This document shows positions 41,169 to 62,749 of a DNA stretch of 64,000 nucleotides, piece after piece. Within the stretch, counting starts at the first letter, position 1; each line of letters starts with the position of its first letter. A program made the translations under genes and the position numbers. The DNA is taken from the IMG/VR virus record IMGVR_UViG_3300025000_000056; one strand, 5' to 3'. The DNA is from a virus. Lineage: Duplodnaviria > Heunggongvirae > Uroviricota > Caudoviricetes. The notes below the pieces were generated by a model. It ran no database searches. It was given only the letters and a program-made list of their open reading frames with translations, and was not told the DNA's origin.

Positions 41169-41188
41169 TTAAAACCTCCTTAAAGAAT

Positions 41189-41385
41189 GGCCGGAGATAC
41201 TAAGGGGAGGGATAGTACTCCGGCCTAGAAGAAGAGTAAGGAGTGTCGTACCGAGAGGAAAGCGGACAACACTAGAAGAGTGATCATGGCGGCAGCCACG
41301 CCGCCTTATAGGTGAGCGGGAATGCACGAAGCTAACTTTCCCGCTAGATCACCGAATCTTAGCTTGCTTTAAGTGCAAGTAACTT
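41189..41385 (-). ncRNA. Candidate structured RNA/leader of about five hairpins with C/U-rich loops
   Basis: Stems GGCCGGAG/CTCCGGCC, GTGTTGT-CCG/CGG-ACGACAC (needs a G.U pair, favouring the minus strand), GGCGGC/GCCGCC, GGTGA-GCGGGAA/TTCCCGC-TCACC and CTTGC/GCAAG fill the 220-nt gap after TerL. Confidence 0.45.
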
Positions 41386-41389
41386 TAGA

Positions 41390-47806: not shown

Positions 47807-47838
47807 ATATATCAACGATCAATTTCTTTATATTTGTA
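47807..47838 (-). promoter_or_regulatory. Candidate late promoter TACAA-N21-ATATAT (copy 3), at the strand switch
   Basis: Minus strand TACAA-ATATAAAGAAATTGATCGTTG-ATATAT directly upstream of the first leftward gene. Confidence 0.55.
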
Positions 47839-48719: not shown

Positions 48720-49160
48720 GTGTACAACATGTTTATTAATTGTGATGATGTAAATCTAGAAACAACAAAGACCTTTGCAAGTAAGATTCTCAGAAAGATA
48801 CGTAAGCTCTATGTCGGTAAGCCGTTTAAACTAAAGTATACCTGGGCTATGGATCTCAATGCTATTTGGGAATCGGATAAACACTTTGTTATTCCTTACT
48901 ATTGCTATAACGAAAAAGGATTAGGATACAAGGTGTTCTTGCGGCTTCCTAAGCGTGAGCCTATAGTTGGTACGTTGTACGGGTATGACATTTATGGTAA
49001 TAAACATGTGCTTGCTGTTAACGTCTTTCCTGCTACCTTTCATGATCCTAGTTGTGTTATTAAGATGATTCAAATGGTTGCCAAGGTACCTATTGAGTAT
49101 GGTCGAGAACAATTGGCGTTTAACTTCAAGATTAGTAACGAAGGAGGTGATGCCATTTAA
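48720..49160 (+). CDS. Hypothetical early protein
   Basis: 146 aa, AAAGG RBS. Confidence 0.65.
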   Translation: MYNMFINCDDVNLETTKTFASKILRKIRKLYVGKPFKLKYTWAMDLNAIWESDKHFVIPYYCYNEKGLGYKVFLRLPKREPIVGTLYGYDIYGNKHVLAVNVFPATFHDPSCVIKMIQMVAKVPIEYGREQLAFNFKISNEGGDAI

Positions 49161-49830
49161 GTCTTATCTATTATGTGAAAGGAGGTGGTGTTGGCCCGTA
49201 GTTAGGTATCACACATGACATGAGGGGAGGTGAGGCATATTGCTTGACACCGGTGATCCTTAGTCTAGCGGTCATGTGTTCTAGATTTTAATCGTAGTTT
49301 AAGTGTTATAAGGGAAGATGTCATCATGTGCTGCTAGACGAAAGGACTATTAGTCGTAGAGGCTATAGTTTAATGCCCATCCTACCAAGGGATGAGCGTG
49401 ATAGGTTTTAATGCCTATCGGTCTACCGGTCCTATGTGGACTGGATTGAGGACCAGTTATGAGATGGCCCTTGAACTCGGCCCATAGAGGCTGGAGGTGG
49501 CCAGGTGCGTGTCTTCTCCGAAAGGGGAACAGACATGTTAATCTGGAGTTTATTAATCCTATATCCGTTGATGGCTCAGGAAGCCTTCCACATGCTAATG
49601 GATGACCTATTAGTAAGTGAGTCAGTGATGCTGGCTGTATTTAATTACAATCACTTCTACTATGAGGTCAATACCTTACAGTGGATAGGCGAATTCATGA
49701 GCCGGAGGACTGTTGCGCTCTTATCATCAATGGGGCGTAGTCTGACTACTGGTTGGTGAACTTCAAGTCGGAGGGTTACCCTTGTCACTGATTAAGACTA
49801 GTGACTATTGAACTACTGTCGAGAAAGGAA
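49140..49830 (+). ncRNA. Candidate large structured non-coding RNA
   Basis: About 690 nt with no convincing ORF; many short stems, a GAAA tetraloop hairpin, crossing 9-bp helices, repeated strong SD motifs. Confidence 0.4.
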
Positions 49831-49840
49831 GTGAACTTTT

Positions 49841-50008
49841 ATGTCTAAGAAACTTATGATTATTGGCCAAGTTAAACAGGGTGTTATCACGTATGGCAAG
49901 ATTGTCTCTAAACTGCGTCCAGTTGTTGCTGAACCAGCTATTTGGGAAGATGAAGATTCTAAAATCATGCAGCGTATTATCGAACGCAATCACAAAGCTA
50001 ATCGTTAA
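49841..50008 (+). CDS. 55-aa protein (below track cut-off)
   Basis: AAAGGAAGTG RBS, MSKKLMIIGQVKQGVITYGKIVSKLRPVVAEPAIWEDEDSKIMQRIIERNHKANR. Confidence 0.6.
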   Translation: MSKKLMIIGQVKQGVITYGKIVSKLRPVVAEPAIWEDEDSKIMQRIIERNHKANR

Positions 50009-50063
50009 TCATGACTAGTAAGACCTGACCTATCATGGCAGGCATAGTATAAAGGAGACTATT

Positions 50064-51176
50064 ATGACAAACTTATTAAACGTAAACAACACCGGTATCA
50101 CAACTCCAGTATCCGACACATTGAGTGCTAGTGTCAAAGTAGTTACTAACACTGTTGGTCACATTGGTAATACACTGTCTGGTGTTCTTGCTTCTTTAAC
50201 TAAGGCAGACGGTGCTGGTGCTATTGATTGTGTTGGTGCCCTGCTGATCAACGTTACTACAGAGACTGTCATTGGCGTATCGACCATAGCACATAGTGTG
50301 CAAGACAACTGGGCATCACCGGTCGTGAATATGGTTACCACTAAGTTTGCGCCTATGGCACCGGTGACTATCACACCTAATACTGAAGCTATCAGTGTCA
50401 ATGGTATTACACCTGAGATGCAGGCCGTTATTGATGCTAGTGTTAATAAGATCCTGGCCGATAGCAAGAACAGTGCTGCTCCTAGTAAACCAATCACAGT
50501 ACACCCCAAAGTGACGGCAACTGCTAAACAAGATGTACAGTTCATGTCTCACAAGAAAGTGCGTACTGCTGATGTCATTCATGAGAGTGTCAACTTTAAA
50601 GCTGAAGGTATTGTGTTGACAGTAGAGTTTATTGGTGCTGATCTCGCACTTGTATCACCTAAGGGTAAGAACAAAGTAACGAAAGAATCACTGATTACTA
50701 GATTAGCTAAGTACGCTGGTCCTGGTGTCACACGTACTGTTACTGCTATCAAGGCCTTAGCGCCTGACACTAAGATCGCTCCTAAGCCTGTAGTAACAGA
50801 GACCAAGCCTGAGATTAACGCACCAAGTGATGGTCCTGTCTGCGGTAGCTGTGGTTGCTCTTTAATAGGTAAGAAGGTTGTTATCAAGAACAAAGTTAAA
50901 CTCTGCCCTGATTGTGTCGGTGGAGGTACGCCTGCCGCGAGCGTAGCGAGCGGAACCCCTGATGATATTGATCCTAATGTTGCTGATGCTCCTGTTGATG
51001 AGCCTGCTAATGATGAAGCACAAGAAGGAGCAGCGCAAGCTGCTCCTGAACTCACACCACAACAGAAAGCTGCTGCTACTCGTGCTCGTAATAAGGCTGC
51101 CAAAGAAGCCCTTGTAAATCAAGCACCTGAGAGCACGGTCGTTACGGAATTCCAAGAAGAGGACACCTTGGTCTAA
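50064..51176 (+). CDS. Thr/Val/Ala-rich protein with zinc ribbon and basic AAATRARNKAA tail
   Basis: 370 aa, AAGGAG RBS; CGSC..CPDC; acidic linker then TPQQKAAATRARNKAAKE. Confidence 0.8.
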   Translation: MTNLLNVNNTGITTPVSDTLSASVKVVTNTVGHIGNTLSGVLASLTKADGAGAIDCVGALLINVTTETVIGVSTIAHSVQDNWASPVVNMVTTKFAPMAPVTITPNTEAISVNGITPEMQAVIDASVNKILADSKNSAAPSKPITVHPKVTATAKQDVQFMSHKKVRTADVIHESVNFKAEGIVLTVEFIGADLALVSPKGKNKVTKESLITRLAKYAGPGVTRTVTAIKALAPDTKIAPKPVVTETKPEINAPSDGPVCGSCGCSLIGKKVVIKNKVKLCPDCVGGGTPAASVASGTPDDIDPNVADAPVDEPANDEAQEGAAQAAPELTPQQKAAATRARNKAAKEALVNQAPESTVVTEFQEEDTLV

Positions 51177-51179
51177 GCC

Positions 51180-51780
51180 ATTCCCCGCCTTACGGCTAAA
51201 CATAAGAAATCCATTTCATGCCTCGTCATAAATCCAGCCTATGGTCAAGCCTCAGAAATCCAAAACATCGGTGTCACGGCCCTAGGGAAAACAGAGCAAA
51301 TCTTGAGTGCTTTAAGTTAACTGCCTAGATTCGTAACACTGCCTAGCGCCAGCCATAGGCTGGCGCTATGACCAGCCCAAATAAGGCCCATTAGATTCAC
51401 AGTGTTTGTTATTGTTTAGTGATTGATTAGTATCCCGTAACAATGCTTTATAACTAGATTGCCGTATGATCAGTAGTATATGCCTTGTTTTGATGCTCTA
51501 GAGTCGCTGTAATTGCGCTCTTTCTCTAATTGCCCAGCCCCTGGAGAAGCCCAACGATAGCCTAAAGGGTAATAAACGGGTCATACGGTGTTACAAATAC
51601 ATGGTGAATTACCGTTACACATACGTACTCATACAAGCCCGCAGTCCAGAGCCCATACGGTGTGTAGGTATATCTAAGCTTCGCAAGATATACCTACACA
51701 CCTAACATTAATAGTCTATATGAGTAGATATTAGGTTCAGGGTATATACTAACTATATATTACATTATGTAATTAAGGAG
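51180..51780. other. 600-bp non-coding region with short direct repeats and hairpins (possible origin/regulatory hub)
   Basis: AAATCC x3, CTGCCTAG x2, CATACGGTGT x2; hairpins at 51344-51368 and 51659-51702. Confidence 0.4.
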
Positions 51781-51788
51781 GTGAATTA

Positions 51789-51962
51789 ATGGATCGTTAT
51801 TATTATAAGGATGGTCGTATCTATGATCGGTCTGAGATGTGTGGTACTGAGCATATCTGTATTGCTGCTAATGTTGAGAAGTGGCGTGCTAAGATCATTG
51901 TACGTGAAATGAATCAAGGATTACCTTATCGTCCTGATATTAGTTATAAGGAGCGTGATTAA
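51789..51962 (+). CDS. 57-aa protein (below track cut-off)
   Basis: AAGGAGGTGA RBS, MDRYYYKDGRIYDRSEMCGTEHICIAANVEKWRAK... Confidence 0.7.
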   Translation: MDRYYYKDGRIYDRSEMCGTEHICIAANVEKWRAKIIVREMNQGLPYRPDISYKERD

Positions 51963-62078: not shown

Positions 62079-62089
62079 GGAGGAATTCC

Positions 62090-62266
62090 ATGGGAACATA
62101 TGATTATTGTGATTGTCATACTCATTGGTGTTACTATGATTTTATCCAGGTGTTTAACATTTCGATTGATCTGTTTGCTAAATGGGTTATTGCTCCGTTT
62201 TTGAAAGTCATGCCTAAGCGTAAGCAACGCAATACATGGGTTGAGCTAACATGGCATGATCCATAG
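62090..62266 (+). CDS. 58-aa protein (below track cut-off)
   Basis: AAGGAGG RBS, MGTYDYCDCHTHWCYYDFIQVFNISIDLFAKW... Confidence 0.6.
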   Translation: MGTYDYCDCHTHWCYYDFIQVFNISIDLFAKWVIAPFLKVMPKRKQRNTWVELTWHDP

Positions 62267-62295
62267 TTGACAACTTAATTATTAGATTGTATACT
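62267..62295 (+). promoter_or_regulatory. Consensus SigA/sigma70 promoter
   Basis: TTGACA-17 bp-TATACT. Confidence 0.85.
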
Positions 62296-62317
62296 CACTA
62301 AGTTATCCTCATAATAT

Positions 62318-62365
62318 AAAGGGGAGCGTAGCCTATCTTGTCATAGGCTACGCTCCCCTTTTTTT
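62318..62365 (+). terminator. Rho-independent terminator
   Basis: AAAGGGGAGCGTAGCCTAT-CTTGTC-ATAGGCTACGCTCCCC followed by T7. Confidence 0.9.
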
Positions 62366-62539
62366 GATCACCGGTTATTCCGAGTGCTTGCGATGTGGCT
62401 TTTGCTTATAGTTTGGAATATAATTTGTCCAAACTATAAGCTAGACCCACACCTTAATTGGCTTAGTATAGTTTGCATTACAAAGTGTAATACTATATTA
62501 GGCTATTCTTTTACGAATTAACCTCAAAGGAGGTAATAT

Positions 62540-62749
62540 ATGAAGCAAGTCTTAGATCTAATTAGGTCAAAACGTACACCAAGCTATACTAAGCAGACCG
62601 ACATTAAGCGAATTGTGAAAGCCAAAGAAACTGGTAATTGGGAGGAGGTTTATAAAAGCAGTCTTTACAGGATTCATGGTGGTGAATATTGTGAGTTATT
62701 AAGCGTTATGCACAGATTCGAAAGTGAAGGAGGCGTTTATCATAGATAA
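62540..62749 (+). CDS. Hypothetical protein
   Basis: 69 aa, AAAGGAGGT RBS. Confidence 0.7.
   Translation: MKQVLDLIRSKRTPSYTKQTDIKRIVKAKETGNWEEVYKSSLYRIHGGEYCELLSVMHRFESEGGVYHR

Follow-up and report, generated by a model that had tools for sequence, protein, structure and literature searches.

A candidate structured RNA of a new class in the early region of an uncultured groundwater jumbo phage

An uncultured jumbo phage from groundwater raises the question of what is encoded in a gap of 680 nt between two of its genes, and whether this gap specifies a large structured RNA. The window, by which we mean the whole 64-kb stretch of DNA that was analyzed, comes from a phage of ~220-230 kb whose distant relatives include Bacillus phage 0305phi8-36. 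The portal proteins of the two share 49% identity, and among the weaker relatives are phages with Bacillus and Moorella hosts. The use of PHROGs allowed TerL, the portal and a Dda-like helicase to be recognised in the window. Identical copies of the phage sequence were found in metagenomes from groundwater and sediment, on contigs of up to 220-230 kb, and the copy that was retrieved (L016) does not differ from the window. The region under study was identical in all public copies examined; their assemblies belong to two BioProjects (SRR1658469 / PRJNA268031 and SRR944699 / PRJNA167727). Leftward late genes stop at 47808, and rightward genes begin at ~47974. The region lies on the rightward side, between g146 (48720-49160) and g55 (49841-50008), both located on the plus strand and both with normal codon usage (0.31 and 0.52 bits/codon, respectively). 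Its GC content is 0.46-0.47, as compared with 0.37-0.39 in the upstream flank. No tandem repeats were found in the region, and no paralogue of it was found within the window.

The neighbouring genes gave nothing significant in PADLOC, Pfam or PHROGs; weak PHROG matches to a 'head protein' were obtained for the C-terminal part of g370 only. The g146 product (146 aa, or 143 aa when counted from 48729) is an ORFan. When it was compared by phmmer with 1.84 billion representatives, it matched itself and, spuriously, one repeat protein. The latter (P0128, 655 aa), which is the only distant g146 match, consists in part of five near-identical ~93-aa repeats that resemble residues 10-59 of g146 (48729-49160) with 32-34% identity, and its E-value is probably inflated by the repeats. 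The g370 gene (50064-51176) also codes for an ORFan, which matched only itself among 5.8 billion proteins. It contains a CxxC...CxxC zinc-ribbon-like motif, and its C-terminal third is acidic and rich in Ala and Pro.

The coding potential of the region was assessed with a model of codon usage derived from 29 long genes in the window. Each of the stop codons TAA, TAG and TGA occurs in all six frames, so no stop-codon reassignment opens the region. The open reading frame described in the earlier note as atypical in composition does exist at 49505-49759 on the plus strand (ORF84; 84 codons, with a GTG start codon spaced 7 nt from GGAGGTG). Its score of -0.017 bits/codon lies below the values for true 84-codon pieces (0.36 +/- 0.105, minimum 0.018) and inside the range of spurious long ORFs (-0.13 +/- 0.15), whereas all neighbouring small genes scored 0.09-0.53 bits/codon. 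The deduced protein has no Lys, as compared with 8% in neighbouring proteins, and contains seven internal Met in addition to the initiator and three Trp. No homologue was detected among 5.8 billion proteins, where ORF84 matched only itself, or by tblastn in phage records, and there was no significant match in Pfam or PADLOC. We conclude that ORF84 is probably a chance open frame.

The folding strength of the region was expressed as z-scores relative to dinucleotide-preserving shuffles (100 shuffles in the case of the domain 49243-49823). For the whole gap of 680 nt, z was -4.5 on the plus strand and -2.2 on the minus strand. The domain 49243-49823 gave -6.0 and -3.3, the hairpins H1-H7 gave -4.6 and -2.2, and the long arm at 49544-49765 gave -5.5 and -2.7, in the same order of strands. 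The leader at 49141-49242 was not folded beyond expectation on either strand (+0.75 on the plus and -0.76 on the minus strand), and four coding stretches of 580 nt each gave values between -0.8 and +0.7 on the plus strand. In a GC-corrected scan, three consecutive 300-nt windows over the region ranked 2nd, 3rd and 5th of ~425 on the plus strand, and the windows of the region did not appear in the top twelve of the minus strand. Among the 198 predicted pairs, 37 (19%) are G.U, consistent with base pairing in plus-strand RNA. These results support a real RNA-level structure on the plus strand. The proposal of the earlier note, a large structured non-coding RNA, is partly supported: it agrees with the strand-specific fold, the lack of a coding signal and the stops in every frame. 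The single stems are at chance level: four uninterrupted stems of at least 9 bp were observed, and 3.3 were found in dinucleotide shuffles.

Other intergenic gaps of the window also fold strongly, with z-scores of -3.75 (51204-51788), -5.5 (62079-62723) and -5.0 (41169-41389, minus strand). Strong folding is thus a feature that the region shares with other non-coding DNA of the phage. One such gap, when inspected, turned out to consist of small genes of the ordinary kind, a promoter of the sigma-70 type and a terminator with a U tail. The ORF-free gap at 51204-51788 (585 nt, with the above z on the plus strand) follows g370; it contains a perfect 17-bp hairpin (51659-51702) and a 23-nt imperfect inverted repeat (51222-51244 and 51353-51375), and shows no likeness to the region between g146 and g55. 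The apparent 645-nt 'gap' at 62079-62723 holds small genes, for example at 62091-62267. A canonical sigma-70-type promoter (TTGACA, 17 nt, TATACT) is located at ~62268-62296; downstream of it come a strong terminator hairpin with a U tail (~62320-62366) and then a second long hairpin, all within 62240-62540. This promoter and terminator indicate that the phage uses ordinary host-type signals. The gap at 41169-41389 comprises 221 nt after the terminase gene, and its z-score refers to the sense (minus) strand.

According to the predicted fold, the domain 49243-49823 is a multi-branched structure of ~580 nt with about eight helices within a long-range closing helix. The 5' strand of the closing helix (49243-49261) consists of CUUGACA and GGUGAUCCUU, which pair with 49817-49823 (p 0.63) and 49771-49780 (p 0.86). 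Long-range helices are unreliable in minimum free energy (MFE) folds of single sequences. The first element, H1 (49263-49339), holds helix B (p ~1.0). It is followed by H2 (49344-49371), H3 (49373-49399), H4 (49400-49419, with the loop UUUAAU), H5 (49420-49454) and H6 (49465-49503), the pairs of which have probabilities of 0.7-1.0. The motif TTTAATGCCYATC is present twice among the hairpins in 49344-49503. H7 (49504-49543; p 0.95) is composed of 8 bp and 5 bp closed by a GAAA tetraloop, with a 2-nt AC bulge on its 3' strand and the GTG start of ORF84 inside it. Next comes the arm (49544-49765), which is long (222 nt) and irregular, has a 15-bp base, and carries the second UUUAAU hexaloop. The 3' strands of the closing helix (49771-49823) flank a hairpin at 49784-49805 (GUCACUG/UAGUGAC; p 0.97). 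Directly 3' of the closing helix, one base past its end, begins the RBS of g55, AAAGGAAGTG. The two UUUAAU hexaloops (49407-49412 and 49640-49645) have an unpaired probability of ~1.0, and the sequence UUUAA was observed six times in the region, as compared with 0.6 expected.

The stems listed in the earlier note were found in this fold. GATAGG/CCTATC, CCGGTCC/GGACTGG inside GGTC/GACC, TTCTCC-GAAA-GGGGAA and GTCACT/AGTGAC are all part of the MFE structure, with pair probabilities of 0.7-1.0. The same note had proposed a pseudoknot formed by two crossing helices, and the strands of both are where it had placed them. Helix A would join ACACATGAC (49211-49219) to GTCATGTGT (49271-49279), and helix B joins GTCTAGCGG (49263-49271) to CTGCTAGAC (49331-49339) by 9 bp with one G.U. 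The helices do cross and their pairing is energetically possible, but the arrangement is statistically unremarkable, since a crossing pair was present in 36% of shuffles. In the nested ensemble, the probability of helix A is 0 because that of helix B is ~1.0. The segment 49271-49279 of H1 can pair with 49211-49219 instead; helix A competes in this way with an extension of helix B, and forcing it costs 5.3 kcal/mol in the nested fold. The duplex energies are -11.8 kcal/mol for helix A and -12.9 kcal/mol for helix B. The calculated energy of the helix A duplex would allow a true pseudoknot, which we regard as putative.

Upstream of the domain lies an unstructured, purine-rich leader (49140-49242, plus strand) with three extended Shine-Dalgarno (SD)-like motifs: GAAGGAGGTGATG (49140-49152), GAAAGGAGGTGGTG (49177-49190) and GGGGAGGTGAGG (49224-49235). 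Each of them is followed by a minigene of 4-22 codons only. The three motifs match the usual anti-SD sequence of Bacillota over 8-11 nt. The window contains 13 copies of GGAGGTG (3.4 expected), four of which fall within the 360 nt of 49143-49499; the fourth is located at 49493, in H6. As judged by reading the coordinates, copies outside 49143-49499 mostly lie just upstream of gene starts. This placement suggests that the phage relies on unusually long SD sequences. The shorter GGAGG occurs six times in the region, as compared with 1.4 expected (P ~0.0005). A CsrA sponge was rejected, GGA not being enriched in the region (19 vs. 16), and the loop motif AGGAAGUUUAUGR was absent from it.

A leader of this kind has a counterpart in Bacillus. 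In Bacillus thuringiensis, the cry3A mRNA is stabilised on its 5' side by the STAB-SD element (Agaisse & Lereclus 1996; Mathy et al. 2007; review, PMC4113751), and untranslated SD sequences block RNase J1 (PMC4113751). Such an element is situated close to the 5' end of a processed transcript that it stabilises, the block being due to a 30S subunit bound to it. Like STAB-SD, the long motifs GAAAGGAGGTG and AAGGAGGTGAT are SD-like, complementary to the 3' end of 16S rRNA, and start no real ORF, directing the translation of no gene. By analogy, they also stand upstream of the RNA that they would protect. Unlike STAB-SD, which is present in one copy, the leader carries three.

The earlier note had suggested an RNA such as ROOL or GOLLD, or a new class, and had proposed a comparison with Rfam that would also cover OLE, introns and ribozymes. 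The region is none of these known RNAs, as cmscan against Rfam 15 gave no match. At gathering scores, there were no matches in the whole 64-kb window, and at E <= 10 the interval 48900-50200 gave only five irrelevant ones with E of 2-6. The covariance models of ROOL, GOLLD and OLE were unmatched at both thresholds. Both ROOL and GOLLD belong to the large, ornate RNAs found in phages and prophages of Bacillota (Weinberg et al. 2017, PMC5737381; Rfam; cryo-EM, PMC12286853). The region resembles them in its size (~580-680 nt), in its occurrence in a phage of the kind that infects Bacillota, in the many helices arranged around junctions, in the lack of coding capacity, and in a GC content higher than that of the surroundings. 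It differs from them in that no covariance model matches it and it is a singleton, and in that it lies inside an operon with no promoter or terminator of its own found. It also lacks the nearby tRNA genes typical of GOLLD and ROOL, since no tRNA or tmRNA was detected by ARAGORN in the 64-kb window.

Relatives of the region were sought in several collections. The blastn comparison of the region, at a distant setting, with 50,697 phage records returned nothing related, and tblastn of g370 and g146 against the phage records was negative. Searches of IMG/VR with g370, g146 and the helicase revealed no relative carrying the region. The nearest relatives of the phage share 44-55% identity in TerL or the helicase. 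Searching the TerL relatives L001-L015 with the region by nhmmer was negative, as were BLAST and covariance models applied to the full records G001-G005 and four phages of the 0305phi8-36 group. The covariance models, R1 (49340-49505) and R2 (49566-49710), also gave no match in the loci of TerL and helicase relatives or in the complete 210-kb relative G005. Rfam at gathering scores revealed nothing relevant on the related loci, and two pattern scans of metagenomes and one of viral sequences returned unrelated tandem repeats only. No counterpart of the region was seen in the closest helicase relatives (L027-L030). The ORF-free gaps at comparable positions in relatives are ordinary AT-rich regulatory regions with no sequence likeness to it: the syntenic gap of L029 (5332-6006) is unstructured (z -1.6), and those of L004 and L005 are AT-rich divergent promoter regions. 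The region is therefore a singleton for which no conserved core can be defined. The closest helicase relative, L027 (55% identity; Logan SRR29050541), contains a strongly folding but otherwise ordinary intergenic stretch of 591 nt (2191-2781; z -6.7) ~4.3 kb upstream of its helicase, with a 33-aa ORF and a clear terminator. The sequence of this stretch is unrelated to that of the region.

We tentatively favour the reading that the region is a structured RNA of a new class, carried in an early transcript and preceded by a stabilising leader of the STAB-SD type. In this model, 49141-49840 would be a non-coding, structured segment of a rightward (early-side) polycistronic transcript, and the domain 49243-49823 would function as an RNA whose class has not been described so far. 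The motifs of the leader may bind the 3' end of 16S rRNA or 30S subunits, as STAB-SD does in Bacillus. The bound leader would shield the downstream RNA from 5'-to-3' decay and so let it accumulate. Transcription, processing, 30S binding, the single-domain architecture and any trans-acting function are inferred. The reading is favoured by the size and branching of the fold, the non-coding character of ORF84, the Bacillus precedent of untranslated SD sequences, and the sharp boundary that separates an unstructured leader, rich in SD motifs, from a compact domain. It is weakened by the absence of any homologue in the searches, the strong folding of other gaps, the start geometry of ORF84 together with its fairly confident helical model, and the lack of a detected promoter or terminator belonging to the region. 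A more elaborate version is doubtful. In it, a new ornate phage RNA class of ~580 nt with a STAB-SD-like leader would self-associate via its UUUAAU loops and serve host takeover; the two identical loops do have a self-complementary UUAA core.

Among the alternatives, the first, itself unlikely, is that the region acts in cis as a structured intercistronic spacer within the mRNA and has no independent function as an RNA. The domain and the hairpin at 49784-49805 could then be elements of processing and stability, namely RNase III or RNase Y sites or a 5' stabiliser of the g55-g370 message. Alternatively, the translation of g55 could be coupled to events in the leader, given that a minigene of seven codons (49240-49263) shares sequence with the 5' strand of the closing helix and the 3' strand of this helix abuts the RBS of g55. 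The single base that separates the helix from this RBS fits such an arrangement. So do the hairpins in other gaps of the phage and the STAB-SD precedent, in which it is the downstream mRNA that is stabilised. Neither a promoter nor a terminator of its own was found for the region; between g146 and g55, the plus strand has one weak terminator site (49620-49636), located within the arm. RNase III processing hairpins sit between early genes of T7 and of SP82/SPO1-type phages, and the region is like them in being structured and placed between early genes of a polycistronic phage transcript. However, those hairpins are single and tens of nt long, whereas the region is a multi-branched structure of 580 nt. 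Its length and its roughly eight helices far exceed the needs of known processing or stabiliser elements. Moreover, simple hairpins or terminators account for the structure in the other gaps, whereas the region is multi-branched, rich in G.U pairs and strand-asymmetric.

Rather unlikely is the reading in which ORF84 codes for a real small helical protein, its mRNA being tightly folded and repressed in translation and 49161-49504 serving as the structured leader. This would be an arrangement like that of type I toxin fold-back mRNAs. The region is like the hok/sok type in being strongly folded over several hundred nt with long-range pairing of its 5' and 3' parts, and in hiding the SD and the start codon of a small ORF: the SD of ORF84 lies in H6 and its start codon in H7, and the end of the ORF coincides with the closing of the arm. 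The geometry of SD, spacer and start is the same as in real genes, for example the gene at 51789, and ORF84 stays open for 84 codons and was called by the gene callers of public assemblies. A single-sequence AlphaFold2 model consists of two long helices (a helical hairpin) with a mean pLDDT of 77. The pTM of this model is only 0.35, however, and helix-prone chance sequences can attain such pLDDT values. By a rough estimate, an open frame of this length arises by chance in ~1/3 of such regions. The codon score below that of all true pieces of equal length and within the spurious range, the composition in Lys, Met and Trp, and the absence of homologues among 5.8 billion proteins also argue against a real gene. 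Type I toxin systems combine the mRNA of a small hydrophobic toxin with an antisense RNA encoded in cis, and typical toxins of this kind are shorter than ORF84. In contrast to type I toxin mRNAs, ORF84 has no obvious transmembrane segment on inspection of the sequence, and its codon usage is like that of non-coding DNA. No convincing antisense promoter was found either, the minus strand at the region having weak promoter-like sites only (9/12 matches).

The proposal that the region is functionless DNA, either decayed (remnants of small genes with surviving RBSs) or foreign (a mobile insertion), and that its folding is accidental, appears improbable. Several RBS-like motifs without ORFs, the GC content above that of the upstream flank, and the lack of relatives that carry the region would agree with it. 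Against it, the z-score of -6.0 was obtained with dinucleotide-preserving shuffles, which already remove the effect of composition. Phage genomes rarely keep 680 nt of junk within an operon, and the region was identical in the public copies examined from the two BioProjects.

A self-splicing group I or group II intron that divides one gene into g146 and g55 is very improbable: a structured element of ~680 nt with its ends joined by a helix does lie between same-strand ORFs, phage 0305phi8-36 is reported to carry a group I intron in recA (PMC3239194), and H7 is shaped like group II domain V (8 + 5 bp, GAAA loop, AC bulge), but neither Intron_gpI nor Intron_gpII or D1-D4 was matched at E <= 10, H7 has G-C-G-U at the triad position with no AGC or CGC and is followed by the 222-nt arm in place of domain VI, g55 is preceded by a separate RBS and, 6 nt before the ATG, by a stop codon in frame, and phmmer revealed no longer, uninterrupted or fused g146 homologue among 1.84 billion representatives.

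The preferred reading, a structured RNA of a new class with a stabilising leader, thus concerns a candidate large phage RNA predicted from a single sequence. Because no relatives were found in any database searched, it is a candidate for a new RNA class and not a proven one. The fold may be that of a free-standing RNA, of a cis element of an mRNA or of the wrapping of a small gene. Few large structured non-coding RNAs are known (ROOL, GOLLD, OLE), and their functions are still unresolved. If the reading is true, the region would be a further, unrelated example, from a subsurface jumbo phage and with a multi-copy ribosome-binding leader, and would widen this small set. It would also provide a new case in which to ask what role large RNAs play during infection.
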